DNA of 63,502 nucleotides, the filler included, from Licmophora abbreviata (lineage: Eukaryota): assembly GCA_900291995.1 (NCBI GenBank). It is 10 parts of 10 records of this genome, joined end to end, with 100 filler letters (N's around TTAATTAATTAA, not from the genome) between each part and the next. Parts side by side here need not be neighbours in the genome. Positions count along the whole stretch, not along the records: positions 5,766 to 25,373 come from OLMU01005184.1; 9 more parts are not named here. The stretch is one strand, 5' to 3'. Made by a program: the position numbers and the translations under genes. The notes beneath the pieces were generated by a model. It was not told the DNA's origin, did not search any database, and saw only the letters and a list, made by a program, of their open reading frames with translations. Shown here in pieces: positions 10,297-63,502 of this stretch; position 1 is the stretch's first letter, and each line of letters begins with the position of its first letter.

Positions 10297-13200
10297 TTAC
10301 CATTTGGCTGTCTTTGCACGCTGGTATTGCCAAGACGAGACCTTCCTTGCGTTGTCGTGTAGCCACTTCATGTCGACACTCGGAGCGGCATCAGTGGAAG
10401 GGTTGTCCATGTGCACGGAAGCGGCGTGGTGAAAGGCAACACTAACTTGTCTAGCAAGCTGGGAAGGAAACTCACTCCGTGCTCTGCTGCCTACTGGTAC
10501 ACTATCATCACTGGTGGCTAGCTCTTTTTGTTCCACCAAACGGTAATAGGTACGGCAGAGTGGGTGGAGTAGGTCCGGATTGGCGTGTGTCGATGGACCT
10601 TCACCGTCATAGACAAAATCGTTGAGGTGTTCACAGGTCCCCCACTGGTGCAGCCTTGTAGCGTTGTGTAGGAGCTTCCACACATAGTCGGAATCGGTGC
10701 AAACGTCCATGTGGACGTGGGTCTCGTGGAGAAAGTTAGCTTCATTCTTGAGAAGCTGTAGCAAGAACTTGAGCGCATCGTGACATGCGTACAGCTCGCA
10801 CCGATTCCGGGATGGCCTCAAGTACGGAAAGCCCACGAGAACAATGCCATCCTCGTAGTAGGTTGCCTCTGACATGATTTGGGCAAATGCCACTTCGGCG
10901 ATCTGGCGAAGCTTGAGGGCCAGCTCGGGTCCACCTCGGTACTCACCAAATTGGGGAAAGTAGAGGGCGATTCCGCCGGCGCGTCTCGTGCCACGGACCT
11001 GTGACCGGTCGTCGGGCGGGTACACCTTGCCGGATACGAAAACGAGAATTCTTGTAGAGCAAGCATCGCTAGATGTTGAGTCCTCGGGTAGTAGGCTGGG
11101 CGGGTAGGGGCTGTTGGAGAGAGTTCCTGCAAGACTTTGAAAGGCTGACTTCGAAGTATTCATTGTCTTCGCGATCAACAACGGAGGCACAGGCACTAAT
11201 TTTCGTGTATCAACTGTTTCTGTTGCAGGAGTCAAGACTGTGGCGCCCGCTTCACACGACTCGACAGTCACCAGCGATGGTCGTGCATCGCCGTATACAT
11301 ATTTTCTACCCTTCCAGAGCCGGCCTGAGTTGCAGATGTTGTACATGTTTGGCAAGCTTGTACCCAGGTCCTTGGCAGCAGCTCTGGCGCTCTCGTATTC
11401 GCTCGACACTTCACCAGAGTCCATGTCGATTCCGATGACAGTTCGCTTCTTCCTCTTGGCACCTCTGGAAGGAGATCGCAATGCTTTGGAAAGCGCGACA
11501 GGATCGGAGGTCGTCTGCATAGACTTGCGTAGCCGTCGCTCGAGCATACCGTTCGTAGTCACCAGCATGGAGGGGCTTGCGGAGACAACCTGAGGAACGA
11601 GCGCCTGTTCCGATTTGTCAGCGGCAAATGCTTTTTCAATCATATCTAGTTTGGGTTCGAGGGAGTTTCGAATACTCTGGCACAAAATGCGAGGTGTGGA
11701 CAAGACAATACTTTTGAGATCCTTCTTGGGCAGTCCCAATCGGTCTCGCAGGAACATCAGCTTTGGCTCCAAGTTTCGTTTCCAGGACAGCACGAGAATC
11801 ACAGGAGCCCGCTTTACAATGACACCCACTTCTTCCAATGTCATTCCACAGAACTCCGATATACCGTCTACTGTCGGACGAAGTTTGTTTTGAAGCGACA
11901 GGCCCATCATGATCGGTTGCGCAACGATCATCCCGGACAATGAATCGCGAGGAATCCCAAGATCGTTTACGAAGAAGTTCAGTTTTGGTCGAAGCGACGC
12001 CTCGACACTGTATTGCAAAAGTGATGGCTGCCTCAGTGTCGATTTGCGCAACTCGTCTCTTGTCATGCCCACGTCTTCACAAAAGAAGTTGAGCCGCTGG
12101 AAAAGTCCCACGTCGGTCGAGTTTTGGATCGACATTCCGAGGAGAGATGGCATGCGCAGGATCACTTGCTGAAGCTCACGTGATGTAAGGCCCAGCTCGG
12201 ACTGAAGCGCATCGAGAGTTGGCTGTATCTTTCCCTCAACGCTGTACGTGCTGAGTCGAGAATGGGTCTGTACAGTACAGAAACGGGTTTAATATTGTGA
12301 GACGTATACCGCCTCGAGCCCCAAAGCTATCAACATGCCTGCTCACCTTGAGCATGGCTTGCACTTGGCTGGGTGCAACTTGAAGTCGTGAACAGATGAA
12401 GTGTAGATCCCGTTGCTTCAAGGTGTTTCGCACTGTGCCCCTTTGGTCCAGCATTTCCCAAGTTGGCTCAGGATCGCACACCACCAACATAGGGAAGGCC
12501 TGAAGCGTCTGGCGCAGCTGTAACCAAGAGAGTCCCAACGAGCGCAGAAAAGCAAAGGTGCACACACACGAGGCTGTCCCGCCATTGACACTGTCTTCCA
12601 AAGCGAGTCTTGCTTCGTCTATTAAGGAATAAGGAACTTTCAGGACTTTGTAGTAGTACAACAAGGTGGGTTGAAGGGTGCCTGCGTCGTCTCGCGACAA
12701 GGCTAACACGTGAGGTAGTGCGCTGAGAGCCTGTGATAGTTGAGCCTTGGTCCACCCGAGACCGTATCCTTTCGAATACAATGCAGGCCAATCCGGGGTA
12801 ATCTCTGTCTCGTTGAGGATATTCGACGGCGGGAGAGGCTGCAAGAAGCACCGGAGTCGTTCGGAAACATGGATGATGTCATACAAACAGACGAGCGGAA
12901 AGTTTGCCACCACTGGTTGGGATTTCATTTCAAGAGTTTCCCGCAAGACAGAATCTAGGGCCCCGTAGTTTTGTTGGAGACCCCAGGAGCTGTGTGGCTC
13001 GAACCGTTCGAGGCCTACTCGATCCTGCAGGAATCTACGCAACCCCTCGACCGCTCCATTTTCTGATTGTGCGATCGGCAAACCTCCAACAGCAAGCAAC
13101 GCCAAGGCACGAAGAGCTTCCTCTGGGTCAGTAGGATCTTCTTTATTTTCAACTGTGTCAAACTTGTAAAATTTGTAGTCAGATACTCCACACCCGGCGA

Positions 13201-13585
13201 CCGTGTCTTGTCGTTTACTTCCGGCTACGGTGGCCTGAGGAAAGGCCTCTCGAGCCTCATCCAGAAACTCGTAGCTGGCCAAAACGTTCTTGTTCGCTTT
13301 TGACTTTTGTTGAACAACCGTATGTCTCTGAAATGTAGGAGAATATGTTAAAAAAAGACTTTGTTTCTCTCCAGCAGTAGTGTCTGGCTTTCGAGTAGAA
13401 GCAGCGGACGCGCCATGATTCCCTTGCACCGGCTGCTCGAAACGAGCGCTCAACTTCAGCGTCCATTTTCTCGGCTCCCAATTCAGTATAAAAGACGAGA
13501 TTGTAAGGCATTGGCAAGCGACAATAAATAAGGGCAGCGAGAGTCGTTTCCCAGGCCTCCCGGGGAGAGGGTGAACGTTTTTCAT
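10297..13585 (-). CDS. mTERF-repeat protein fused to a NUMOD1-like HTH and an RNase H-like domain (intron 12268-12346)
   Basis: A GTGAGC...TACAG intron fuses ORFs 12236-13585 and 10297-12165 in frame (MLK|THSRLSTYSVEGKIQPTL). Repeated mTERF motifs (PSLLQYSVEASLRPKLNFF, PVILVLSWKRNLEPKLMFL), then YESARAAAKDLG, then RNRCELYA..AL / TDSDYV / NPDLL. N-terminal hydrophobic segment ending ISSF. Confidence 0.8.
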
Positions 13586-14436
13586 GGTCTTGGAGCCGTC
13601 ATGGTCAAAGGAAAGGGTCCGAGTGTGTCGGCGTCGTCACTCGGGATGATCCCACGGGATGATCCCATAATTGTCTGTGACGTGTCTGACATTTTTCATT
13701 CCTTTCTGAAAACAGGAAAAAGGCCCAACATTAGGTCGTATGTATGTCCTCGTTCGACCGGCCGTTTCAGGATGATTGTCGGTCGTTGCACTCAGACTAC
13801 CTACAGACAGGGGAGCTCCAGGACTGTAGTCGGTCCGACAAGTCGTTCGTGGAATGGTGTAGGCAGCAGGATTCGTGAGTCCAGCATCAAGCACCACCAT
13901 GGCTGCTTACTGCTTGCTTGTCTCTCTAGCTACTACTACTCTTTACGACGATTAAACACGGCCACAATGATGGGCACTACTACTACCAATTGTGAGGAAA
14001 TTTTTGAGATAGCATAAAGCGTACCGGTATGATACGAAGTGCGATACATGTGCAAATTCGCAAATTCGAAGTCACCTTCGTCGCCAAGCACAAGTGTTGA
14101 GTCCCGCGCCGCCGACGCACATACTTTGTCGACAATTTCAAACTGAGGCACATGGGAATTCAAAGTTGTGAGCGGCAGTTGGGCCTTAATGATATTTTTG
14201 TATGTCTTCATGCTTGTATGATATATATTAAAGCAATTATGAGATGCCCGGCACACAAAAGTAATTCATGCATGATTATGATGAATTCGCCAAAGAATAG
14301 TCGAATCGCCCAAAGCCACATCAAAACATCCATCATTCCAGGACGAAAAGAAAAAGAGCATCAATCCACCACAAACAAACAAACGTCAACACACTTTAGA
14401 GTAAAGAAACGGGCAGAAGATTAACTATCTGCTGCC

Positions 14437-15746
14437 ATGGTCATGCATCGTTATCAGATCCTCCTTGTGCTGCTGGGAATCTTGCTCCCGGCCGCTATCA
14501 TTCCTTCGGCGTCAGCCATGGGCAATCGCGAGCTGGGCTGCGAGGACGTGAGTAGCATTCTCTTCTATTTGCTTGGGATGGCTAATCGCCAACAAGAGGT
14601 GGACGAGGAAGAGCTGCTAGAGAAATTTCCCTGCCTTGCTGTAAGTACGGGTAACAGTGGACCAGAGCCGACTACTGAACTCGAGGAAGTTGGCAACGGG
14701 AGTGTTTCGAATCCGCTTCGGGTGTGTCAAGGTATGTATCATATGAACGAACAACTATTGGATTGATCTTGTGAAAAAGGCAGAGCGCAGTGCAACATTT
14801 AACGAATTGCGATTCTAACTCTCTCTCCGTGAACTCTCCATCTGATCAAACAGGCGATTGTGACAATAATGACGAGTGCGCAGGACATCTTGAGTGCTTC
14901 CTTCGGGGCGAGAAAGGGGTCCCTCCAGACGAGCCAGTGCCCGGTTGCATTACTGGAAATGCTCGAGACTTTGTTGACTTTTGCTACGATCCCGACTGGG
15001 GGATCACCTCTTCACCTAGTGCCTCTCCCTCTAAATCTCCCTCCGAATCACCAAGCGACGCTCCTTCGGACGGTCCCTCCGGCGCGCCTTCCGATGTTCC
15101 CTCCCTCTCGCCTTCTGCTTTGCTCTCCGTGTCACCCTCCTCATCACCCTCCATCTCTCCATCAGAGTCCCCCGTTGAGGCACCACCTGAGATTCCTAGT
15201 GGTGACTTTCGCTTGAGGCTGTGGTGGAAACTAGGCTATACGTGGCAAGAAAATCCGAAGGAACAGTGGTTCTGTCTCCGCTGTGACAGCGGAAGGACGT
15301 GCGAAGCAGGAGACAAGGTCAAGATTTACGATGTTTGTGACGAAAGTAGTACTAGCTTTGAGTTTCTCGAAGTTCAGGGAAGTGGGGGTATGGAAATCAT
15401 GTTGAAAGACCACCGCTCCAACAACTGCTTGCGTTACGAAGAAGTTCGCGATGTTGGACCGAACCAGCGAGGGTACAATGCTGTGTACATGCGAATGCAG
15501 AAGTGTGACGACGAGGATGAACGCCAGAGGTGGGAGACGAAAGGAAACGGTCAGTTCTGGGAAAACCATTTTGAGCTGTGGTCCGTCCTGGAAGGTGATA
15601 GCTGTGATAACTACGTGAGAGATGGATGCGACGATCGTTGCGTAACAATGATGCATCATCCCAGGCGCACAGAAGAGATTTGGTCTGAGAATTGTTGGCT
15701 GGCACGTCGCGATGCCTCCTCCTTCTGGGAACCTCATTACTATTAG
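14437..15746 (+). CDS. Frustulin-like secreted cell-wall protein (intron 14732-14853)
   Basis: Signal peptide then REL (RXL) motif. Splicing creates LRVCQGDCDNNDEC..LECFLR..VPGC..DFCYDP (acidic Cys-rich ACR domain), followed by a Ser/Pro linker and a Trp/Cys-rich C-terminal domain (RLRLWWKLGYTWQE..WFCLRC). Confidence 0.8.
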
Positions 15747-15943
15747 AGGCGTGCTGACTTGAGAGTTGATCCATGGCATGCGCGCGTCACGACCCTCTCC
15801 AAGTGAGGGGCATGCGCGCGCTTAGATTCAATCGTTACACATTAACAGAAGTAGGATCTAGTTTGTTCATCCGCTTGTATGCTTGTTCAGAAGCTTCTCG
15901 TGTTCATCGATAATACTAGAATGCTATGATATTCGCAATATAT

Positions 15944-17249
15944 TCATAGTTTCGCATTGTTGGGAACGGCCCGCGAAAGTTGCGAGTATTGTTCTGTGAC
16001 ATGAATGCCCAAGTACTCCAGTTCCAGCTCCCATTTGGCCAAGGACGATTCGCAAAGGACTCGGCGGTCCAGCTTGGTCTCGAGCCACACAATCTCGCGC
16101 AAGAGCTGTTCGAGGGCAATTCTATAGATCTCCGAGTCAACTTCTGATAGCCAGCTCACCACTCGCAGCGTTGTCTTGGAAAGGTTGCGGAGCACAGCAC
16201 GGTGACCAAGCTCATGGTGAATCTTGTGCATATCCCCAGTTGTAGGGAGAGGACAAACGCATGTCTTGTCCAGATAGGCTTGCATTGCATCGGTATCCAT
16301 CCAATTCAAGGCTGTGAGATTCTTCGGATCATCAAAATAACGGAGGATGCGATAGAACAAGAGGCATTTGCTCTCGTGGTAGAATTCCGTAAGAGGCGCA
16401 AAATCAAGACCCCAGTAGGTTTGGTTTGCTACTGCCACACTTGGCGACATCGCAAAAAAATTGCATCTCTGACGTTTGTTCGTTTGGGTGAGGAAATGAC
16501 TTTGAAAGTTCGATGGGTCGTAGCAGCGATAGCAGTCGGTTGCCGGAGCGGGCAAACGACCCACAAAGTGCGACAACCACTCATCAAAATCCACCAGATC
16601 GCCGTCTGGAGTGTCTCCGCTTCGTGGAAAGTCCGTCCCGTTCGTTACCTTCCTCCCCCACTTATCGTACTTGCATTCTGTGAAGAGTGACCATATATGA
16701 TGCCTTGGACTCTTCAATGACGTTGCTATATAGTCGCCCGGCTGTAGAAGGCTCTGTTGATACAAGATATTGTACTCTTGGCCTGCTCGCTTCATGGGAA
16801 AGACGTGAGGGAGTACTCGGTGCAGTTCGCCAATCCACGAGGCGCCTGCGCATTTCGAAATGTGAGCAAAGGAAAAGACGCGGTGGGGGTCGATGGGAGT
16901 ACACCGATGAGGTGCAATCTCGCATGCGTCGAGCGGCAATAGTTCCGTACTACTACCGCTTCCCGAAGTGGGTATTATTTTCACGTTCATCATTCCGGCT
17001 GTGTCCGCTTGACGACGCTGATAAATTGATGATGATGATGATGATGATCGTTAGATTCACCGCGGTCAGGACATAAAAGACTAGACTGCAGGAGTGTGGA
17101 AAGCTTCGTTTGTCGTCGAGTCTATTTTTCGTGTCGCAAGAAGTAGTCTCCGATCGCCCAGCACCATTGCCGTCGTCGCCTTCGTCGAAGAGCGTCGGAA
17201 TCATCGATTGTCGCTCGTCGTCGTCTTTATCAACCGACCGGAGCTTCAT
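15944..17249 (-). CDS. Golgi-type sulfotransferase-like protein with apparent 1-nt frameshift near 17026
   Basis: 5'-PSB-like FAHISKCAGAS and 3'-PB-like LKSPRHHIWSLF. The type II TM anchor (VFYVLTAVNLTIIIIII) lies in the overlapping upstream frame; removing one base gives IIIIYQRRQADTAGMMNVK. Confidence 0.62.
17027..17049. repeat. (GAT/ATC)n microsatellite encoding a poly-Ile TM segment
   Basis: tgatgatgatgatgatgatgatc seen directly. Confidence 0.9.
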
Positions 17250-18005
17250 CCTTGATCCCAAAGAAGTAAGTACAGTATATTTAATGTAATTCAATTTGGT
17301 GTTGGTAGTCTTTTAGCAGGGTATCCAAAAGGAGTGCATCGTTGTCCTTGTCCGTCATGGTGCTCACAGCAAAGGGCACGAGAGTGATTCGAGTCGAGTC
17401 GATCGACTGAGAGGATTAGAAGTCTTTGTTGCTATACTGCATTCTGGAGCTCGTAATATACGCCCCAGCATTGTACGGACAAGAAGATAATTATGAATAA
17501 AGCTTTCACACAAAGATTCGAAATGCAAGAAACGTTGAGTTGTAACCTGCGCTAGCCGTAACGCGATGCGAGCGCACCGCTGCATGATGATGGCGACGCT
17601 GGAGCGTCTTGTGTCCCCTCCGTTCAAGAATTGGTACAACTAGAGCAGTTTAGTGTTTGTTGTTGTTGTATAACAGTATCATACACGCAAACGATATGGG
17701 CGGGCGAGCAGCCGGCTTCTTCTGGCTGCTTCAGAAAGACAACTATAAGTACCATCCCAGTCACGAATGATTGGATCACAGTCACGAGGGTCCTAGTCCA
17801 TCCGCCAATTCAATGATGCATTTGCCATGATGCCCCTTCTGCCTCCTGTGACAGAGCTTCCAGCCAGTTTCAAGGAATCAAGGAGGTCTCACTGCTGCAT
17901 CGCGCTGTAACAGAAAGCCCCTCGTCCCATCAAAGCTTCTTCTTCTTCTTCTTCGCGCTTGATTTTCTTTAGTTTGTATACTACTATTCCAAGAGAAGAA
18001 CCATC

Positions 18006-19532
18006 ATGACGCCGCTCACGGCATTCCTCTTGGCCGTCTGCTTGATTGTCATTGATATCTCCATACGAATCTATCATGAATCAAAAGACAACCAGTTTTC
18101 GCTCTCATCCATGCTCATTAGAACGGATACTATTACTGCATCAGACCTTCCCGTGGTGGCAGTGGTGGATCCTGTTCGTAGTAGTGCTACACCGCAAACC
18201 AACACTTCGAATGCAGTAGTACTACCAAACAACACAGATAGCATAGAAACCCAACAAGACCGAACTCCTGATAGCATACTACGGCAACGAGAGCAGTCCA
18301 TCGCTTCTTGGGCCAACACAACGACCCCAGAGTTGTTGTCGTTACAAACCAAAATCAGCCGACTGAACTGTTCCACACCCGAAAACAACCACTACCAATA
18401 TTTTGAGACGTGTCACTGTTACAATTGCTGTGTCAAGGACAAGGTTGTTTACGTATTTGACAACAACAACAACTACTACTACAATCAGAGTGTAGTACGG
18501 TGGTCTAACGTTACCTCTCGGTACATGAGTGCAACAGCAACCTTTCCGATTCAGCATGCGTCGTTCCAGCAGAGGAGAGACTTTAACGACTCACTCTGGG
18601 TCGATACACCGGTGCATTATACCAGTGTAAAGAGACAGCATATTCTCGCACTCTGGATGTGGAATGCGGATGTATGGAGTACATGGCACGAGGAGGGCTG
18701 GTACGACCGAGACTTCGGTCCCTTCCATTGGATGTTGATGAACACTATCTCACGGGAGGATAAGGACTATCTCAGTACCTATTGGTTTGCTCTGAACCAT
18801 CCCAGCATGGAAGCTCCGGTCCGGTTGAATGATAACGACGACACGCATACAGCGAAGGCTTCGTGCTACAGTCATTTAATGATTGGGCATCATCATACTG
18901 CACAAACGCTCTTTGCCAGCGCGGTCGCCAAGGTTCCGTTGGGGACGAATTCAGTACCACCAGAGACGATCAACGAGCACGCATGGAGTCTCTTGAAACG
19001 TTACAGTCAGTTCTTTGTGGAAAAGGTGGGCCTCGTGGATATCGCGACCAACCCGACGAGAGCGGTATTGATATCGAGAAAGGACAGCAAGAATGGACGC
19101 AGGATCCTAAACGAGATTGAGTTGGTATCTGTCATGGAGGAACAAGGCTTCGAAGTGGAGGAAATTGAGTTCTCGGAATTGTCATTCGAAGAGTCCAACA
19201 GGAGGATTCGATCTGCGTCAGTTGTCTTTGGGTCCCATGGAGCAGGTTTCACCAACATCATGGTGTGTCACAATTCCACAGCAGTTATTGAGCTCCATCC
19301 ATTCGGCTTTCAGAAATGGGGCTACGCCCACTTGGCACGCATTCTCGGGCTGGACTACCACTACTTGAATGCACCGAATACCTCGTATACCAAGCATTCT
19401 CCAGCGAGTGCAAAGTACACTGAGTTGAGTTGGAACTTTTACAGACACCGAGACTATTTCGTCGATGTTGGTGAGTTCCGAGCAATAATAAAGAAAGTCA
19501 AGAGGCAGCAAGAACTGAGACGACATGTATGA
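18006..19532 (+). CDS. Glycosyltransferase family 61 protein, type II membrane
   Basis: N-terminal TM. C-terminal ISRK..RRILNEIEL, SASVVFGSHGAGFTNIM, AVIELHP, LARILGLDY. Confidence 0.88.
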   Translation: MTPLTAFLLAVCLIVIDISIRIYHESKDNQFSLSSMLIRTDTITASDLPVVAVVDPVRSSATPQTNTSNAVVLPNNTDSIETQQDRTPDSILRQREQSIASWANTTTPELLSLQTKISRLNCSTPENNHYQYFETCHCYNCCVKDKVVYVFDNNNNYYYNQSVVRWSNVTSRYMSATATFPIQHASFQQRRDFNDSLWVDTPVHYTSVKRQHILALWMWNADVWSTWHEEGWYDRDFGPFHWMLMNTISREDKDYLSTYWFALNHPSMEAPVRLNDNDDTHTAKASCYSHLMIGHHHTAQTLFASAVAKVPLGTNSVPPETINEHAWSLLKRYSQFFVEKVGLVDIATNPTRAVLISRKDSKNGRRILNEIELVSVMEEQGFEVEEIEFSELSFEESNRRIRSASVVFGSHGAGFTNIMVCHNSTAVIELHPFGFQKWGYAHLARILGLDYHYLNAPNTSYTKHSPASAKYTELSWNFYRHRDYFVDVGEFRAIIKKVKRQQELRRHV

Positions 19533-19690
19533 CAATCCAATAGCACGATCTGTTGTTTCTGTACTCTTAGTCGTATTTTTATATCAAAGCAATCTTCGAC
19601 TCTGCTAGAGGTAGTGTAGAAAATGATGCGGTTCCATAGATTTTCAGTGGGCGCAGTCCTTGTCGAGCCCGAGCTTTTCTCGGGCGAGTC

Positions 19691-20668
19691 CTACATACGA
19701 TTCGCTTGTAAAACAACGGCCTTAGCAAGACCACCGCCTTCTCCAGACGACTCGTTGTCCTCTGGCAACAACTGCGTATTTCCATTTTCGTGTCCCCAAC
19801 AGGTCTGTGATATCCCAAAGGCATCTTCCAATATACGACCCGCAGTTGGAGAATCAATCGCCACTTCTACAAGGTTGTGACTTGGATGAGTGCGGACAAA
19901 GTCTTTCACACGTCGTATCTGAGATTCGTAGAACTCAAAGAGTTCCTCGTCCATCATGCCCACACCGGCAGGTAAGCCAATGATATCACAAAACATGAGC
20001 CGTCGATCCATCCCTGACCAAGCCCGTAGACTCCGCACCCAGTTAGTCACATTGCGTGTGTTGAGAATGAACGTACTGGTTGGATGCGCCGCATGGATCT
20101 GCTCCAAGGCTTCGATTTGTGGAAAGTAACACGGTAACCCTTTTCTGGGGTCAAATTCGACATCGAGCTGCGCATAGACATTGGCACGTCCCGTATGAGC
20201 TAGCGGCTTTCGACCGTGTTTGAGATTCTTGTGGATCAGAGCTCCACAGGCGCGGTTGGCGCAACGATGATGGGAGACTCGCTCGACGCCTCCGCACCGA
20301 AAGTATTCTGCGATCGAGTTGGTGCCGGACTTGGGAAGTCCCAGCACAAGGACTGGATTCGGCCAGTAATCTGTGGGAGTAGAGCGAGAAACCGTGTCTT
20401 CTAGAAGTAGCTCGTCCGCGCGCTGGTGCCGTCGCGACTCTTGAAGGAAGCGTCTCTTGCTCGCTACACCAGAAGCATCAGTCGTGGTGATCATGGTGGT
20501 GATGGGGACAGCGGACGGGAGTCGTGACACGGTCGTGCCCGCCAGAAATCCAAGAATCCAGAACGTTCCTGCCACATACAAGAGCTCATTCGCAATGCCC
20601 CGTCCTCGTCTCCGAGCTGTGGGTGGTCTCATGCGTTGCGCGTCTTTCATGCTCGAGTTTGGTATCAT
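19691..20668 (-). CDS. P-loop sulfotransferase-like protein with TM anchor
   Basis: VLVLGLPKSGTNSIAEYF (5'-PSB-like), FILNTRNVTNWVRS (3'-PB-like), N-terminal TM, and an RRFL segment. Start uncertain (track uses TTG 20749). Confidence 0.78.
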   Translation of the reverse strand: MIPNSSMKDAQRMRPPTARRRGRGIANELLYVAGTFWILGFLAGTTVSRLPSAVPITTMITTTDASGVASKRRFLQESRRHQRADELLLEDTVSRSTPTDYWPNPVLVLGLPKSGTNSIAEYFRCGGVERVSHHRCANRACGALIHKNLKHGRKPLAHTGRANVYAQLDVEFDPRKGLPCYFPQIEALEQIHAAHPTSTFILNTRNVTNWVRSLRAWSGMDRRLMFCDIIGLPAGVGMMDEELFEFYESQIRRVKDFVRTHPSHNLVEVAIDSPTAGRILEDAFGISQTCWGHENGNTQLLPEDNESSGEGGGLAKAVVLQANRM

Positions 20669-21218
20669 AGGTATTCTGTATGAATGGTCTCGATGGATGC
20701 ATTCACACTTGACGAGATAATCTGTTGGGTGAGATTTGGTTATCGCCAAAATGACTTTCTGCTGTAGACTGACATTTTGAGAATGACCATGGTGTAAGAT
20801 CGCGTCTCACTCAAAACACAACGCGATACCCATGGTGTCGCATGTTGAGTATGCATTCTTTTCCAGCATGTGTTTCTCTCTTTCCAATCATCGTGCACTA
20901 TTTCAATCGTGGAAAGGAAGCATAGGCTCCAACGGTCGGAGAAATCCAAGGCCGTGCGGAGGCTCCTCGTCGGCTCAGACTCACAACTTTGGCGGTACGT
21001 CGGAACATGATCGTGTGTTGACAGCATACGCGCTACTTGCTCGTCTCCTTGTCATTCAGCTTGTTGCATCATCACCATGACGGTCATTGTGTGTCTTGTG
21101 ATTGGTGATGATTGTCTCTCACTCTCGCATGGTGTTTCGCTTCCTGGCTGTTGTCTCAGACCGAGATTCTGTGTTACTTGTTTCTCCTTTCCCAGCTTTT
21201 CAGTAGTAGTTTCGTATC

Positions 21219-22008
21219 ATGAAGTTTCTCCGTACGACCATTCTCCTGCTTGCACCTTGGACTGATCTCGTTGCTGGCTCCGAGCTGACTGACACGATCC
21301 TTCCTGAGGTGAGTATAAATCAAAACAGACTGCTTGTCGCTAGAGCAACTGCACGTCGCGACTCACTGCCACTGCCATCCTTGGCTTTCTACTCTCTTTC
21401 TATATTCAATATAGGACGTGGAGTTTTGGGGGCGCAAACTAGAGGATATCGGTTCTTTTGCGGAGTCGTCCATGCTGCCTCCCGCGGAACCTGCCGACGA
21501 GCCTGCCATTGACGATCAATCGTCTGTTCCTCCTGAGACCGACGCCGTCGACGATCCCAGTCCTGGCAAGGGCGGTGGAAAAGGAAAAGGCAAGGGCAAA
21601 GGTGGTGGAAAAGGCAAGGGCGGCAAAGGTGGCAAGGGCGACTCTACGGCACCTACGTCCGTCCCCCCTTCTGTTGGAACGTCCACGGCCAAGGGCGGCT
21701 CGTCTGCCGCGCCGTCCTCGGTCCCTCAAGCTGCAAGCTCTAAAACTGCCAAGGGCAGCAAGGGATCAAAAGCAAGTCGCGCTCCTACTTCGGCCGTCCC
21801 TCCAATTCTTGGTGTGCAAGCAAGTAGCAAGGGTAGCAAAGGCTCGCCTGCTCCCGTCGCTTCTTCTGCTCCAGTCGCTAGCAGTGCCCTCGCGACCGAC
21901 CCTGTGAGCAACGATCCCCCGGAGGGGCGCAGCGCGGATTCCATGATGGATTGGATCAAGGGTCTCTTTGGAAAGGACGGTCATCGCAACTTGCGTTTGG
22001 CTGATTAG
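21219..22008 (+). CDS. Secreted Lys/Gly/Ser-rich silaffin/cingulin-like protein (intron 21309-21414)
   Basis: Signal peptide MKFLRTTILLLAPW. A GTGAGT...ATAG intron gives ILPE|DVEFWGRKL (RXL). GKGGGKGKGKGKGGGKGKGGKGGKG block, SSKTAKGSKGSKAS and SSKGSKGS KxxK motifs, C-terminal RNLR. Confidence 0.72.
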
Positions 22009-22292
22009 TACTATGATACAACTAGCAGGAACGCCCTGGCAAAAGTGAGTTGCCTAGTGCACTTGAAATGTGCCTTATAAAAGTTTAATGTTGGCATTTG
22101 AATCCAAGTGAACCTTGTTTAGGTTGGACGTAGCGCTTTCTCTTCCGATGAGAGTCAGAGAGTGGATGATCGCCAAGAGTTTTAGTCCCGAGTCAGTCGC
22201 GTGTTTGGTGACGCACGGCGGGCGGACTTCAGTTGGATTAGAAAAAAAGGAGAGGATCGCGATGTGATTGACCACACTTTTCTCGCGCCACC

Positions 22293-23477
22293 ATGAGCGA
22301 CTTTCAATCGCTCTTGTCATCGTTTCAAGCTGCTACAGGGACTCCATCGACTTCGTCTACTGCTCAAACTAGTGACGATACTACCGAGGACAAGTCATCA
22401 TCGTCGTCGTCCTTGCTCGAATTAACGACTCGGCTGTGGCAGTTCTCGCAGCTCAAACATTCGACGCGGGCACTACTGCAAAACAGCAACAGTAGTAGTG
22501 CGGATGGCAGTGTCATACACAAGGATTCTCCGAAATTAAAAAAGAAAGTTCACCTTGCCATTTGTCTCTGTATAGTCGACGACCTTCCTCATGAAAATAT
22601 TTGGAAGCACTGGATGGAAGACGACGAGTCGGGGGACAAGGTATCAACAACGACCACCGCTATTGCTGCAGAGCTCTACGTTCACGCCAAGCACCCCGAG
22701 CGCATTCGTTCCAGCTGGGTGCGAGGGAAGCTTCTGTCTGTATCACACAAACCCGACTGGAATGACGTGCGGATTGTCAAGGCCATGTTGAGCCTCGTGG
22801 AGAAAGCCTTGCAGGACGATCATGTGACGCATATCCTCTTTGGGACAGAATCGTGTATACCGATTGTGACTCTCCACGAAATCCAGCTGGATCACTCCAA
22901 GAGTTACGTCGCCTACTTTGATAAACGCCACGCCAGTCGGTTTGATGAACGACGCTGTTGGAATGCTGTGGAACCCCATGTACCGAGTCAGGTCATCTAC
23001 AAGGCTCTGCCCGGATGGTGTTGTCTCTGTCGAGAACACGCACAAGCCATTCTCGACTTGCCTCGTACACATCTTGCCGGGAAGGACTTGTACCCTGCGT
23101 TTGAATCGTGCTGGGCTCCAGAAGAAGTCTACTTTCCCACATGTCTTGCCCTTCTTGGATATCTCTCGACTGCATCCGTCGTCCAGCGCGCGTTGACGCA
23201 TGCAGAGTGGAACTTGCGGGCGCACAACGAACGAGATCGGGCGCATCCGAAACAGTGGGACGACGACTTTACTTTGGGGCTGGTCCAAGCCTTGCGCCGC
23301 AAGTACGATTGTTTCTTCTTGAGAAAAGTCAAGTATCGAATGCCATTGGAGCGATGGCAGCGGGCTGTGGGACAGAGTAGTGGCGGGGAGCGGAATCGCC
23401 GCGGCGTTGACGATGAGTACAGACGGCGCGAACCGTATTACCGTGCAGACAGTAATAAGCGTCGACGGCGTAGCTAG
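22293..23477 (+). CDS. Core-2/I-branching (GT14-like/DUF266) glycosyltransferase-like protein
   Basis: LYVHAK, W.DVRIVKAM..L..AL.D, TESCIPI, APEEVYFPT, THAEW, HPK, FFLRKV. Confidence 0.82.
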   Translation: MSDFQSLLSSFQAATGTPSTSSTAQTSDDTTEDKSSSSSSLLELTTRLWQFSQLKHSTRALLQNSNSSSADGSVIHKDSPKLKKKVHLAICLCIVDDLPHENIWKHWMEDDESGDKVSTTTTAIAAELYVHAKHPERIRSSWVRGKLLSVSHKPDWNDVRIVKAMLSLVEKALQDDHVTHILFGTESCIPIVTLHEIQLDHSKSYVAYFDKRHASRFDERRCWNAVEPHVPSQVIYKALPGWCCLCREHAQAILDLPRTHLAGKDLYPAFESCWAPEEVYFPTCLALLGYLSTASVVQRALTHAEWNLRAHNERDRAHPKQWDDDFTLGLVQALRRKYDCFFLRKVKYRMPLERWQRAVGQSSGGERNRRGVDDEYRRREPYYRADSNKRRRRS

Positions 23478-29168: not shown

Positions 29169-31307
29169 CTACGCGCCTTGCACGGTTATTGTAATTTCGA
29201 GACTATTTCCTGCGTTGCCATTGCCACGAGCCCGGTCATATATGACTGCCTTGACAGCATAACTCCCGTTGCTAGGTTGCCAGTTGAAATAGTCTTCACC
29301 TTTATTACCCGCTAGTGCGTATGGGGCAACATTTTCGGTCTTCTCTATGCCGCCATTCAGAAAGAATCTGACACTTCCAATACCACTGCCACTCGTGTCG
29401 GCCCGAATATTTATGTTGGGAGTCAACGACTTGTCAATCGTGTATCCGTTCGTCAGAGTATTGATTTTGGTATTGGTCATCGAGTTCATCAAGGACATAG
29501 ATACAATCGAAGGTCCTCCGCCGACTGGGTTCGGTGTCGACTGAGGCGTCCTCGTCTGTTTTTCGACAATTGTCAATTGTATCGAATAGGTGTTTCCAGC
29601 ATCATCTTGCCCATCGGCCTGGTTATACACGGTAGCGCTGAGGGTTTGGGTGCCCAATGGCGCATCCCAGGCCCTGTAGTCTCCGTCGATATCTCCTTGT
29701 AGTGCATAGGGTGCAAAACGTTCGATCCGCTGAGTAATGCCGTTCAGTTTGAATACAACGCTCCCAATGATGCCAACTGAATTCGCGCGGACATTGATCG
29801 CTGGTGTGTCCTCTAGCACGATCATGGATCCGTCAGATATTGTCCGGATATCTCCATTTGTGTCGGAGTTTATCAGTGTGAAACTCGTGATGGCTGGCCC
29901 GGCGGCAGCCTGGGGCGTAGGATTGGGGGTAGGATTAGGCGTCGATTCTGGGACTGGATTGGGAGTGGGCCCAGACGTCGGATCTGCCGTTGGCTGCGCG
30001 GATGACTCTGTGGCCGTGGGAGTCTCACTTGGCAACGAGCTGGGCATCATGGAAGGCACGATGCTCGGAGCAGATGACTCCGTGACAGTGGGAGTCGCAC
30101 TTGGCAACGAGCTGGGCGTCACGGAAGGCGCGGAGCTTGGAACAGAGGACTTGGCGACAAAGGGAGTTGCGCTTGGCAACGAGCTGGGCATCACGGAAGG
30201 CATGGAGCTTGGAGCAGATGACTCGGTGACGGTTGGAGTCTCACTTTGTAACGAGCTGGGCGTCACTGAAGGCACGGAGCTCGGAACAGAAGACTTGGTG
30301 ACAGTGGGAGTCGCGCTTGGCAACGCGCTAGGCATCACGGGAGGCATGGAGCTTGGAGCAGATGATTCGGTTGAAATTGGATCAAAATTGATAACCCCAT
30401 CGTCGTCCTCCGCGATAGATGGAGCCTGGCTTGAGATTTCGCTCGGCGAGCTGCTTGGTACCATACTGGGCGCCACTGACGCCAACTCGCTCAAGTCAAG
30501 AGGCCATTCGAACATGCTCGCAAAATTCTCTTCCCGAACTATCACATTCCCGTCCACGGAGACCTGAAAGAACGGGAGGTCGTCGTTCCGATCCTCGTTG
30601 AATCCATTCTGTCCGCTGTCCTTGATGACAAAATAGTGCATACCCGATCGAGGAAGGCACATCTCACGCCGCACTGACGCCCCAGCAAAGTAGGCCCAGG
30701 TGGAACGAAGCACGTATATGTCCTCTGTGTAGACGCTATTGCGGTTCGAGTCTTCGATTCGCCATGTCGTCTCGTTGGGCTTGTAGTCCAGGAGAAGATC
30801 AACGGCAACGAACGCTTCATCGTTTGCGCATGCATTGCTATCCAGCATGGTGAACCCGACTCCGGCCCATTGATCGAAGGTGGTATCGTCCTTGATGACT
30901 CTGCCGTCGAACTTGACGCGGAAGACGGCCTGATCTCCAATCAACCCATTCGAGCCCGTATCGCCCAGAGCAAAGTACATGGACTCGTTGTATGAAAGGC
31001 AGATATCAATGGTAGATGTCATGTTTTCTTCGATTGAGCCAAACTCTCCCGTTGAGATCAATTGGCCGTTAGCATGATAGAGTCGCCATAGATTGTCCTC
31101 TGGCGTGTAGTCAGTGTTGATCTCGACGGTAAGGATACCTTCGTCTGACCTGCACACTTGCGTTCCCTCGCGATAGAGCTTCCATTGGTCGTGCATTCGG
31201 GTTCTTTGCCCTTCAGTGAATCCTTCATAGCACAGTGTACTGTACCCCATGGTATTATTGTGTGGGTCAACACCTGGGAGAGACGGGCAAGTGTCCTCGG
31301 AAGTGCC
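29169..31307 (-). CDS. M43 (pappalysin/ulilysin-type) metalloprotease C-terminus + 2 beta-sandwich-like repeats + mucin-like stalk + 2 Ig-like domains; 5' end lost in gap
   Basis: Frame open to the gap: DTCPSLPGVDPHNNTMGYSTLCYEGFTEGQRTRM..W..YR (M43 Met-turn region). TDYTPEDNLW / LDYKPNETTW repeats. Two GSV.F.LNG..E..APYAL.G repeats. Confidence 0.75.
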   Translation of the reverse strand, partial: GTSEDTCPSLPGVDPHNNTMGYSTLCYEGFTEGQRTRMHDQWKLYREGTQVCRSDEGILTVEINTDYTPEDNLWRLYHANGQLISTGEFGSIEENMTSTIDICLSYNESMYFALGDTGSNGLIGDQAVFRVKFDGRVIKDDTTFDQWAGVGFTMLDSNACANDEAFVAVDLLLDYKPNETTWRIEDSNRNSVYTEDIYVLRSTWAYFAGASVRREMCLPRSGMHYFVIKDSGQNGFNEDRNDDLPFFQVSVDGNVIVREENFASMFEWPLDLSELASVAPSMVPSSSPSEISSQAPSIAEDDDGVINFDPISTESSAPSSMPPVMPSALPSATPTVTKSSVPSSVPSVTPSSLQSETPTVTESSAPSSMPSVMPSSLPSATPFVAKSSVPSSAPSVTPSSLPSATPTVTESSAPSIVPSMMPSSLPSETPTATESSAQPTADPTSGPTPNPVPESTPNPTPNPTPQAAAGPAITSFTLINSDTNGDIRTISDGSMIVLEDTPAINVRANSVGIIGSVVFKLNGITQRIERFAPYALQGDIDGDYRAWDAPLGTQTLSATVYNQADGQDDAGNTYSIQLTIVEKQTRTPQSTPNPVGGGPSIVSMSLMNSMTNTKINTLTNGYTIDKSLTPNINIRADTSGSGIGSVRFFLNGGIEKTENVAPYALAGNKGEDYFNWQPSNGSYAVKAVIYDRARGNGNAGNSLEITITVQGA
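29998..30372 (-). repeat. Coding tandem repeat, about 72 bp (24 aa) x5, alternating TESSA/TKSSV types
   Basis: TESSAPSSMPPVMPSALPSATPTV / TKSSVPSSVPSVTPSSLQSETPTV / TESSA.. / AKSSV.. / TESSA.. Confidence 0.85.
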
Positions 31308-31407
31308 NNNNNNNNNNNNNNNNNNNNNNNNNNNNNNNNNNNNNNNNNNNNTTAATTAATTAANNNNNNNNNNNNNNNNNNNNNNNNNNNNNNNNNNNNN
31401 NNNNNNN

Positions 31408-35608: not shown

Positions 35609-36346
35609 CGACAATGATTCTGTCTGTTACTTGTACATACGCTATCATATAATTCATTGCTCCCACTGCTTGTTCTTATTGTGATATGTGGGTATTCGTT
35701 CTATGCTAGTTGAAACGTTGATCACTAGGTGGTTGTACAAGTAGTATCGTTCTTTGGAATCAGTAGAATTGACAGCATCACAGATAGGTCTGTCTTGAAA
35801 CTCGTCTACACCATCAACCATCAATCATTATTCATGATCTTCCCGCATCGTGGCACATCCTCCACGTAGCGGAAGCATATACGCCACCATTCATCATATC
35901 TTAATGGATTCACGAAAGACCTGACGAAACCAGTCATTTGTCTTTCACGCCCTCGTCGAGATAACGATCTGTTCTCGTGACTCGTGAGACGAACACCTGA
36001 AGCGTGAAAGGATTTGTCTTACATACAACGTACGCTACGGCACCGTACGAAGCTGCCTAAAGAGATTGCCGGCACTCCCACCGGTGCAACGCTTTCAGAC
36101 TGCCGTGGTCCGTGGTACCAGGTGACATCCAAATCTGCGTGAACCAGCATCACATTCGGGTTTGCATTGACAAAAATAAGAAGTATTGCTTCGAATATAA
36201 TGTCAGATGCCATCGGGAATCACGTTTGATCATTAAGCTAATTGTCTCGCACTCGAAACAGTTTGCGACACACCTCCATTTCCATAATTTTTTGCCAATC
36301 GACTCACCCCGACATCCAGAGAACGGGTGACCACAACCGGGGAAAG

Positions 36347-37807
36347 ATGATCGTTTTCGGATTGCTGGTAGCTTTCGCTACACTCGCCGGTATGGCGTCT
36401 GCGGACGGCCTTGCAACCAGTGAGCCGAGCTTCTCCATGGCGCCGTCTTTCGAGTTGGCTTCTCCAAAGCCGTCACTGGAACATACCAACGAACCGAGTT
36501 TTAGCATGATACCCACTGCTGTGCCAACCAAGATGGTAGAGAATAGCCGGCCTGTTGGGTCCTGTTTGCAGAGACAAATATGTGAATATTTTGATACGAC
36601 ACCAAGTGGGGAGAAGGTCAAACACGGCGATTACGTCAGCGACGAATGGGCCTCCCTCGGTTTCTTCATCACGGCGTCGTCCAAGGACGGAGGATATACG
36701 CCTGGTGGAAGAGCCCGCATCATGGATACTGCCCATCCTGGCTCTGACGTTGATCTCGGCAGTCCCAACCAGGGCTGTCCCGGTGGAGGCCCTGGCATGG
36801 GAGCTGGCGGCATACCTGGGGCTAAGGGTGAGAACTGTCTCTATCAAGGCAATGCGGTCATCATTCAGGAAGAGAAGAACCGGGATGTCGACGACAATGC
36901 CTACGGGGGCAGTATCAAATTCTCCTTCAATCACTCCGTCACCGTCCTGGCAATGGGAGCTATGGACCTAGACTACGGCGAAAGTGGCAAGCTCGAATAC
37001 GAATACTTTGACGGAAAGGAGAGTTTCTCGCAGCCACTTTATGGACTAGGCGACAACTCAGTTCAGGACATTGAGATTGAACAAGACAATGTCAGTAGTA
37101 TGACGTACACAATCGACCATTCTGGTGCCATCCGATTCATTTGCTACTGCGACTCAGAAGAAGGAGGCACTTCCATTCCTCCTCCTGCGCCGCCGCCCCC
37201 TCCAGTACCGGCAGTTCCGACCGAAGAGATCTGTGTCTACTTTCAGCATGATGCCTATGGGCGGGAGATAAGCCACGGTGACTATGTCGGTGACAACTGG
37301 ATTGCTTGGGGATTGAATATCACGGTCAGTCCCGGCGAAGGAGGCTACGCTCCTGGTGGCAATGGTCGAATCATGGACACTAGTAGACCTGGATCTGAGA
37401 GTGACCTCGGTAGTCCAAACCACGATTGTCCACAAGGAGGCCCGGGAGTAGGAGATGGGGGTAAGCCCTTCATGCCCGGAGAGAACTGCGATTTCGAAGG
37501 CAACGTCCTCATCATTCAGGAAGAGAAAGACCGCGATGTTGACGACAATGCCTATGGCGGCTCGATCAAGTTCAGGTTTACGTACGCGGCAACGCTCAAG
37601 AAAATTGGGCTGATGGATATTGAACAGGGCAGTTCTGCTTCTCTTGGTATAGAGAGAGTAGACGGAACATGGCAGACAACTCCAGTCTACGGGCTCGGCG
37701 ATAACTCTGTGCAGACAGTATGGTTTTGGGATGAATATGGCGTGGCGAGTGTCCAATTGCATCTCGTCAATTCGGGGGCTGTCCGATTTCTCTGTTACAG
37801 CTTTTAA
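36347..37807 (+). CDS. Secreted protein with two tandem copies of a DLGSPN/GLGDNS domain
   Basis: Signal peptide MIVFGLLVAFATLAGMASA. Two ~190-aa copies: HGDYV..W..GGY.PGG..RIMDT..DLGSPN..CP.GGPG.G.GG..GENC..GN..IIQEEK.RDVDDNAYGGSIKF..GLGDNSVQ..SGA.RF.CY, separated by poly-Pro. Confidence 0.85.
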   Translation: MIVFGLLVAFATLAGMASADGLATSEPSFSMAPSFELASPKPSLEHTNEPSFSMIPTAVPTKMVENSRPVGSCLQRQICEYFDTTPSGEKVKHGDYVSDEWASLGFFITASSKDGGYTPGGRARIMDTAHPGSDVDLGSPNQGCPGGGPGMGAGGIPGAKGENCLYQGNAVIIQEEKNRDVDDNAYGGSIKFSFNHSVTVLAMGAMDLDYGESGKLEYEYFDGKESFSQPLYGLGDNSVQDIEIEQDNVSSMTYTIDHSGAIRFICYCDSEEGGTSIPPPAPPPPPVPAVPTEEICVYFQHDAYGREISHGDYVGDNWIAWGLNITVSPGEGGYAPGGNGRIMDTSRPGSESDLGSPNHDCPQGGPGVGDGGKPFMPGENCDFEGNVLIIQEEKDRDVDDNAYGGSIKFRFTYAATLKKIGLMDIEQGSSASLGIERVDGTWQTTPVYGLGDNSVQTVWFWDEYGVASVQLHLVNSGAVRFLCYSF

Positions 37808-62167: not shown

Positions 62168-62170
<3 letters not shown>

Positions 62171-62190
62171 ATACTGATGGAGTCATAGTC

Positions 62191-63502
62191 ATGTCACTCG
62201 AGACAACGACCAAAAACACGACGTCTCGCCGTGGAGTCGTCCTCCTGCGTCAACGGCGGCTCGCGCTTGGGACCGTCGCTCTTGGCCTTGCAATTTTGCT
62301 CGTTCAACTTAATCAACCTAGGAATGACAATAGTGCGAACTCTACTGGTTTCGAATCGAGGCCAAAAGAGGGTGGCGTTATTCAACTCCCGGAGGAAGCA
62401 TCGCAAAACAACAACAACAACAACAACAACAAGCCCTACATTATTCTCCACGTGGGTCCTCACAAGACGGCCACAACGACACTGCAACTGGAACTGACAA
62501 AGATGAACGACGTACTAGCCAAAGACAATACCACGTACGCGGGAAAATTCCAAGACAGCCGATTGGAACATGGCTACGCGGGACATCTTCCCATCTTGGG
62601 GTCTCTCAAGAACAGGGGATGCCAAACTCAAGTGAAACAGGCGCGAATAGAATATCAATCATCATCATCATCATCATCATCAAAAGGCAGTAGTGGGAGT
62701 CTCCGGGACGCCCTTGCAGAGGTGGACTGCTGGAAGAAGTTCACGAAACAGCTGGATTATTTCCAAAGTCTTGGTCATTCAGTCATTATATCCGACGAGA
62801 ACGTCGGCCTGAAAGATGACACCCATATTTCGATTGGAAGGTCGCCCTTGGACTGGATTGCGCTCCAGGAGACTCTTGGGGACGACTGGAATCTACTGGT
62901 AGCTGTGACATATAGGCGGTACGTCGATTGGTTGCCCTCTGCAAAGCAACAGCGCGAACGTTTTCGACCACAGCGCCATGATCTGAGAGTGTGGCCATCG
63001 TCATCGTTACAAGACGGCAATAGGAGTGTCGGGACCCGAATGGCAGCCATGTTTCCTGACTTTTGGGAGAGTCAACCCTATATCTTAATGCCGTTCCATT
63101 TCACCGACAAGATCCTCCGCATGTACGATGGGCATGTCCCACCCGTGAAAGTGATTAATCTGCATGATCCGGAGTATGCTGGCAGCGTGACGAGAAATTT
63201 TGTGTGTACCGTCCTGCCCCATGCTGTCGACTCATGTCCGTACAGTCGATCACTACCACCAGCCGTGCTTAATCCATCCGACCCACCGCCCTACTATGAC
63301 GTACTGGCTACTACTGCTGCCGACATGGGACTCTTGGACACGAGCCGCATCAGTCGTCGAGAGGCCGGGGACGCTGCGAAGGAGTTTCAAGAAAGCGACT
63401 TGCAACTCTCAGTATACGATTTTCCTCTCTTGTGTCCGTCTCACGAGGAGCTCGCGCTGTTTCTGAAGAAATCCTTGCAACTGGAGCAATCGATTCTTCC
63501 CG
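62191..63502 (+). CDS. Type II membrane sulfotransferase-like protein running off the window end (absent from ORF track)
   Basis: MSLETTTK..RRLALGTVALGLAILLV TM, poly-Asn, ILHVGPHKTATTTLQ (5'-PSB-like), IISDE, VTYRRYVDWLPS. No stop before 63502. Confidence 0.8.
   Translation, partial: MSLETTTKNTTSRRGVVLLRQRRLALGTVALGLAILLVQLNQPRNDNSANSTGFESRPKEGGVIQLPEEASQNNNNNNNNKPYIILHVGPHKTATTTLQLELTKMNDVLAKDNTTYAGKFQDSRLEHGYAGHLPILGSLKNRGCQTQVKQARIEYQSSSSSSSSKGSSGSLRDALAEVDCWKKFTKQLDYFQSLGHSVIISDENVGLKDDTHISIGRSPLDWIALQETLGDDWNLLVAVTYRRYVDWLPSAKQQRERFRPQRHDLRVWPSSSLQDGNRSVGTRMAAMFPDFWESQPYILMPFHFTDKILRMYDGHVPPVKVINLHDPEYAGSVTRNFVCTVLPHAVDSCPYSRSLPPAVLNPSDPPPYYDVLATTAADMGLLDTSRISRREAGDAAKEFQESDLQLSVYDFPLLCPSHEELALFLKKSLQLEQSILP

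Follow-up and report, generated by a model that had tools for sequence, protein, structure and literature searches.

A stretch of 63,502 nucleotides of the diatom Licmophora abbreviata (assembly GCA_900291995.1; hereafter the window), joined from ten parts with filler between them, was analysed for six consecutive genes, G1 to G6. An earlier reading of this DNA (the original prediction) had grouped them into a candidate cluster of cell-wall proteins and their tailoring enzymes. Reading of the window by open reading frames (ORFs) and profiles placed all six genes one after the other at 14437-23477, as announced, on contig C5184 of an assembly of 29.2 Mb in 7734 contigs. Contigs C5183 and C5185 matched window positions 1 and 25474, so that contig numbering followed scaffold order, here at least. 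The genes flanking the run were ordinary (mTERF, thiolase), and database-named homologues were diatom. Judged from sequence and predicted fold, G2 represents an uncharacterised algal sulfotransferase (ST) family, relatives of which are fused to, or located beside, glycosyltransferases (GTs) of several unrelated families. The features are listed below; "module" designates the small set of Golgi enzymes proposed here.

G1, 14437..15746, + strand: epsilon-type frustulin; flanking gene, candidate substrate only
G2, 15944..17204, - strand: predicted sulfotransferase of type II membrane topology, from a family that Pfam does not model, with a fold resembling heparan-sulfate 6-O- and 2-O-sulfotransferases (HS6ST, HS2ST); core of the proposed module
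G2-G3 interval, 17205..18005, no strand: 801 bp between divergent starts
G3, 18006..19532, + strand: GT61 glycosyltransferase, anchored by a hydrophobic N-terminus; core of the proposed module
G4, 19691..20668, - strand: type II membrane Sulfotransfer_4 protein; possibly a member of the module
G5, 21219..22008, + strand: silaffin-like, putatively secreted low-complexity protein; flanking gene, candidate substrate only
G6, 22293..23477, + strand: Branch protein of GT14 fold, lacking both a signal peptide and a membrane anchor; probably outside the module

The locus comprised two divergent gene pairs, G2/G3 and G4/G5, and the interval separating the former could possibly act as a shared promoter. 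Among the marks of a biosynthetic gene cluster, adjacency of sequence-unrelated enzyme families was found (G2, G3 and G4 lie side by side), while a single compartment for all members was not, owing to G6.

Gene products of the locus

A Pfam scan of G2 returned no match. Its structural model, built from 33 sequences (pLDDT 88.5), displayed a sulfotransferase fold: the comparison with HS6ST gave a VIA Z of 15.7 (root mean square deviation 4.0, 230 aligned positions) and that with HS2ST a Z of 12.1, the next row falling to 7.5. HS6ST also came first in Foldseek and in a profile search, yet only at E of about 0.03, and Foldseek retrieved nothing at E<=0.001. The Atlas pointed to Sulfotransfer_2/Gal-3-O clusters. 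With the two heparan-sulfate enzymes (PDB 5t03 and 3f5f) G2 shared the fold, a predicted type II topology and a His-containing 5' loop for 3'-phosphoadenosine 5'-phosphosulfate (PAPS); it differed from them by its low identity (13-17%), altered PAPS motifs, absence from Pfam and algal distribution. The 5' PAPS loop aligned to that of HS6ST with substitutions. The positions resembling a 3' PAPS motif were invariant across the G2 family and depart from what we take to be the canonical 3' pattern.

The membrane anchor of G2 was encoded in a different upstream frame, which could be joined by six candidate GT-AG introns of 55-67 nt; a short intron within 16950-17016 is thus the probable arrangement. 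Four DNA runs examined for it yielded only sparse short contigs and did not settle the intron. An anchor was present in 16 of the 23 homologues with a long enough N-terminus, and a frameshift or pseudogene, also considered for G2, is possible though not required.

G3 was assigned to GT61 (PF04577, E 5e-19, 69.4 bits against a cut-off of 27) and carried an N-terminal anchor with a hydropathy of 2.83. The assembly contained 21 GT61 matches, of which 19 were apparently algal, G3 included (both lower bounds); the other two, on bacterial contaminant contigs C5642 and C5643, were dropped. G4 matched Sulfotransfer_4 (33.7 bits, cut-off 22.8), likewise displayed an N-terminal anchor and was unrelated to G2 in sequence. 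A sequence search found no solved relative of G4. Next to one G4 paralogue was an acetyltransferase, and a further ST-like gene lay at a distance of two genes.

G6 matched Branch (E 3.5e-12), and the first matches of its model were xylosyltransferase 1 (XT1, 6ejc, E 2e-8) and core-2 GlcNAc transferase (2gak, 3e-7), with which it shares the GT14 fold. Unlike these two enzymes, G6 and its diatom homologues lacked the signal anchor: neither signal peptide nor membrane anchor was found in G6, and a hydrophobic stretch preceded the domain in only two of 112 homologues. The 110 others included transcripts labelled complete. Without such a signal G6 cannot easily act on secreted proteins, and only three of the four locus enzymes are of Golgi type. 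G6, at the edge of the run, resembles an ordinary conserved gene outside the secretory pathway and is probably a cytosolic or nuclear protein rather than a Golgi enzyme or a member of the module. The gene labels of the original prediction were largely right; G6, labelled a GT14-like branching enzyme, has the fold but no anchor. An N-terminal motif was present in 63 of the 112 homologues and a strongly basic tail in 43. The family was diatom-wide, with a conserved N-terminal helix and the basic tail; a second anchor-less paralogue was encoded in the same genome (L019:1503-2708), and Atlas neighbours included green-algal and giant-virus Branch proteins. The G6 family is possibly an undescribed nucleocytoplasmic glycosyltransferase.

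G1 contained a GT-AG intron (14732-14853) and its spliced product of 395 aa displayed a hydrophobic N-terminus, RXL at position 31, a single ACR domain with both ACR hexapeptide motifs, a Ser/Pro linker and a Trp-rich ricin-B-like domain. Excerpts of PMC4712521 define a frustulin by at least three of five features (presequence, ACR, proline-rich, polyglycine and Trp-rich domains); G1 displayed four, polyglycine being absent. Compared with the epsilon-frustulin of Navicula pelliculosa and the frustulins of Fistulifera solaris, as described there, G1 shared the presequence, the ACR hexapeptides, the proline-rich linker and the Trp-rich ricin-B domain, and differed by having one ACR domain only and no polyglycine.

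G5, after removal of its intron (21309-21414), was 227 aa long; it carried RXL sites at 37 and 221, and its five KXXK motifs (X=S/G) formed two overlapping pairs, with one standing alone. Its best 100-aa stretch held 22 Ser and 14 Lys. A published screen, as outlined in part of PMC5501833, combined a signal peptide for the endoplasmic reticulum with repeated KXXK (X=S/G) spaced by 1-6 residues and an RXL site. G5 fitted it save for its weakly hydrophobic signal peptide (1.27, from hydropathy alone, with no signal predictor). The penta-lysine regular expression, as given in part of 10.1101/2021.09.18.460806, did not match G5, which satisfied a weaker rule of two K..K within 10 residues. With the silaffin-like and KXXK proteins of Thalassiosira pseudonana, as covered in the same two sources, G5 had in common RXL sites, repeated KXXK and Ser/Lys-rich low complexity; it differed from them in its weak signal, the missing penta-lysine match and a Gly/Ala/Pro-rich composition.

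Pairing and fusion of the G2 family with glycosyltransferases

Elsewhere in the genome the G2 family was found at one locus only, a tandem pair on C5634/C5635 with a GT61 gene directly upstream. In another alga (L058), a GT61 gene lay head-to-head with a G2 relative of 32% identity, in the same layout as in the window. GT61 therefore occupied two of 21 neighbour slots of the G2 family (Poisson P 0.0004-0.005, assuming 19-60 GT61 among 12,000-14,000 genes). A third GT61 of the same genome (C4222) likewise adjoined sulfotransferases. Segmental duplication of one ancestral pair was considered and rejected, since in a tree of 20 GT61 rows the four that adjoin STs did not form a group (4 changes against a shuffled mean of 3.8).

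Further neighbours came from 21 metagenome loci of the G2 family (1.1-21 kb, median about 3.6 kb, many of them short and distant), in which the duplicates L046/L047 and L050/L052 were each entered once. Other neighbours of GT or ST type were a GT25-like gene (L045, E 5e-4), a weak ST (L064) and, recognised by eye, an exon with a DxD motif (L062). At the low power of these loci, no homologue of G1, of G3 to G6 or of the flanking genes was detected at E<=0.01. Beside one G2 relative an unannotated type II membrane protein was noticed (L054:1302-2321, - strand), the C-terminal motifs of which resemble what we take to be a secretory-pathway kinase fold, making it a candidate for one.

Fusions, which gave firmer evidence than the neighbours, were surveyed among the best 150 of 1305 G2-family matches. 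Fourteen of these were at least 500 aa long, and nine of the 14 carried a fused domain of glycosyl- or methyltransferase type. Among the 11 that were domain-scanned, five displayed GT47, GT32/Caps_synth, GT92, GT2_4 or DUF6625 above the Pfam cut-off, DUF6625 being taken as putatively GT-like from its DxD motif. The remaining six comprised one weak GT25 with a methyltransferase, two GT25-like domains recognised by eye, one methyltransferase and two without extra domain; the three unscanned members showed low-complexity inserts only. Fusion members occurred across different algae (P0156, P0159, P0163, P0165, P0181, P0207, P0146, P0220, P0261 and L060:44-2431; L060 and P0207, 83% identical, entered the count as one fusion). 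Over 250 aa, the GT25-like domain fused in P0156 shared 58% identity with the free-standing gene beside the G2 relative in L045. No G2-family form longer than 1013 aa was found among 6305 candidates, which is weak evidence.

A denser assemblage was encountered on contigs C4219-C4226, where 35 kb contained 11 GT or ST ORFs of about six kinds (loci L066, L067, L033, L070, L071, L072 and L138, contig adjacency being taken from the numbering). The STs were three Sulfotransfer_1, two Gal-3-O-sulfotransferase-like and one ST-like by motif only; the GTs were an O-fucosyltransferase (E 3e-31), a GT61, two GT8-like (motif, with a weak GT8 match) and one GT-like by motif only. Amid these enzymes lay genes for a SulP/STAS transporter and for TM9SF, ordinary genes were interspersed, and a phosphomannomutase was located on C4218. 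The family-counted probability of such an island was about 0.002-0.04 for 19 GT61 seeds, on the assumption that the contigs are adjacent. C4218-C4226 is a candidate for the synthesis of a fucose-containing sulfated polysaccharide and would seem a stronger lead than the window locus.

Module, chance or cluster

The preferred interpretation, to which we assign a probability of about 0.5, is that the real unit at this locus is a small Golgi glycan-tailoring module of G2 and G3, possibly with G4, and that the flanking genes are incidental. That G2 sulfates a Golgi glycan built or decorated by a partner GT, here G3, is about evenly balanced between true and false. As regards activity, donor, acceptor and cooperation, the following may be proposed. 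In the Golgi, a secreted glycan would receive a pentose or a comparable side sugar from G3; G2, and perhaps G4, would move sulfate from PAPS onto this glycan. Linkage or fusion would hold the sugar-adding and sulfating steps together, the GT partner being swapped between lineages. The glycan might be a polysaccharide, of the wall or extracellular, or else a chain of proteoglycan type. Because GT61 enzymes include xylosyl- and arabinosyltransferases (according to excerpts of PMC12507850), a pentose-bearing sulfated glycan is a plain guess for the product. G1 and G5 are most likely neighbours of unproven relevance, and G6 is most likely unrelated to the module.

Evidence for the G2-GT61 pair as a module was moderate. 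Several results weigh against it. Both PAPS-binding motifs of G2 differed from those of HS6ST at several positions (by alignment for the 5' loop), which makes its sulfotransferase activity uncertain. The three GT61 partners were not orthologues: they occupied separate, partly long branches and barely aligned, which would mean repeated pairing rather than one inherited block and does not amount to conserved synteny. The Poisson result given above is inflated, as family counts are lower bounds. Other genes filled 15 of the 19 metagenome slots, GTs or STs the remaining four, just one of them above the Pfam cut-off. The rate of GT or ST neighbours of the G2 family (5/21) was not significantly above the 2/32 of HSF, the control family (p 0.10), and the share of GT61 slots with an ST (2/20) gave p 0.14 against the control. 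The closest G3 paralogues (C5793, C6596) had no ST neighbour in the stretches seen, and no GT61 occurred as a fused domain in the 11 scanned members.

Chance adjacency is possible, if somewhat unlikely: STs, GT61s and secreted low-complexity proteins would simply be expanded and fast-turning, and the fusions would tell no more than that glycans are the substrates of the G2 family. The caveat of the original prediction that these enzyme families are expanded proved justified, with at least 70 Pfam-detectable ST loci besides the 19 algal GT61 matches, and ST expansion in diatoms is described in part of PMC10328945. To these come STs undetected by Pfam, such as G2 and a putative one at window 62170; the latter ORF (62170-63501, + strand) encoded another type II membrane protein, which displayed a P-loop of sulfotransferase type but matched no Pfam family. 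The surroundings of about 40 of the 70 Pfam ST loci and of 20 loci from 41 HSF matches were fetched (longer flanks being chosen) and neighbours were counted by hand, leaving out bacterial L073 and the apparently cytosolic-type STs L085, L086, L096 and L097. At 31 ST loci a GT or a different ST occupied 4/48 slots (five if a case known by motif only is included), against 2/32 slots at the 20 HSF loci (p 0.7-1.0). The expectation of a GT/ST density above random was thus not borne out, as no genome-wide excess of glycan-enzyme neighbours around STs over the HSF control was found. Such neighbours do arise by chance, as illustrated by C2137, where matches to HSF and ST lay about 540 bp apart. A three-gene GT/ST run was expected 0.2-1.6 times per genome, with GTs and STs hand-estimated at 2.6-5% of genes. 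Pure chance is less easily reconciled with two further cases, beyond the window, of GT61 next to the small G2 family of STs, with a GT partner that one organism has fused and another has as a neighbour (P0156/L045), and with the C4219-C4226 stretch.

Bacterial contaminant contigs (C5640-C5644, C3818 and C6595; L012-L016, L073 and L129), some with surface-glycan genes, inflate family counts. One of the loci left out, L086:1-4939 of the same genome, displayed an ORF resembling a polyketide synthase (KR, reductase), with a Sulfotransfer_3 ORF after it.

The original prediction had proposed a locus resembling a biosynthetic gene cluster: as the frustule or matrix matures, the neighbouring enzymes would glycosylate and sulfate both the frustulin and the silaffin-like protein. 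Only its Golgi core, G2-G3 and perhaps G4, gained independent support; the six-gene assembly of substrates and enzymes did not, and in that extent the proposal is improbable. The four frustulin features of G1 and the KXXK motifs of G5 speak for it, as does the report that some silaffins are O-glycosylated and sulfated by enzymes known as candidates only (excerpts of 10.1101/2021.09.18.460806). A GT/ST trio flanked by a wall-type gene on each side was expected 0.0002-0.015 times per genome, so that a random model would seldom produce the five-gene layout, in a calculation made post hoc with 3% wall-type genes assumed. XT1, the nearest solved fold of G6, would moreover suit a Ser/Gly-rich substrate if the lumen were reachable. 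Against this, homologues of G1, G4, G5 and G6 were found in none of the 21 related loci (many short), the other G2 and GT61 loci of the genome displayed neither a frustulin nor a G5 homologue in the stretches fetched, and G6 and 110 of its 112 homologues lack a targeting signal. Two G1 paralogues lay together elsewhere in the genome (C5509/C5510) with no GT or ST neighbour in the 2.5 kb fetched for each, and G1 itself contained a single N-glycosylation sequon.

A co-regulated or fast-evolving surface-gene neighbourhood, sharing a chromatin domain with no relation of enzyme to substrate, would account for five secretory genes in a row and two divergent pairs. It would also agree with the dense C4219-C4226 island and with a control locus, L109:269-3168, in which two Golgi-type genes adjoined (for a GT2-like protein and a DUF268 one, both of type II). 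The ordinary flanks of the locus and the ordinary genes interleaved in the island leave this explanation, too, with little probability.

Three other genes of the window were of separate interest. The long ORF of the mTERF-repeat gene (10297-13636, - strand) ran on into a short stretch resembling a helix-turn-helix and a region similar to RNase H (weak Pfam matches). Two proteins that look secreted but match no Pfam family displayed, respectively, Ser/Pro/Thr repeats with a doubled C-terminal domain (29169-31355, - strand) and two repeated Gly/Asp-rich domains (36242-37807, + strand).

Parallels and significance

The nearest parallel to the proposed G2-G3 module was found in brown algae, where an ST lies beside FK-GFPP and a hydrolase in a conserved microsyntenic block and ST fusions occur in some lineages (as described in parts of PMC11468063 and PMC6418280). 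As for the G2 family, sulfated-glycan genes of a stramenopile are linked there and STs are fused. The brown-algal cluster is, according to the same sources, conserved across orders and links the ST to a sugar-activation enzyme, whereas in the diatom the ST lies beside GTs, the partner varies by locus and conserved synteny was not found. No publication on GT-ST gene clusters in diatoms was found in the literature searched, most subscription journals and supplements being outside its scope.

Excerpts of a 2015 review describe the biosynthesis of diatom sulfated wall and extracellular polysaccharides as largely unknown (PMC4584364), and those of a 2024 study describe the fucan synthase step as unresolved and diatom fucan structures as poorly studied (PMC11468063). 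For silaffins, too, the sulfating enzymes are named as candidates only (10.1101/2021.09.18.460806, in part). An ST family invisible to Pfam, with its GT partners, would provide concrete enzyme pairs for diatom sulfated surface glycans. A broader and rather doubtful extension is that such glycans are encoded in linked, mix-and-match GT-ST cassettes, of which the window trio would be a small example, the fusions a compressed form and C4218-C4226 a full pathway. If so, gene neighbourhood could locate missing biosynthetic genes, and the wall proteins of the window might carry such chains. Should GT-ST linkage prove general, neighbourhood would become a route to assigning diatom glycan pathways.

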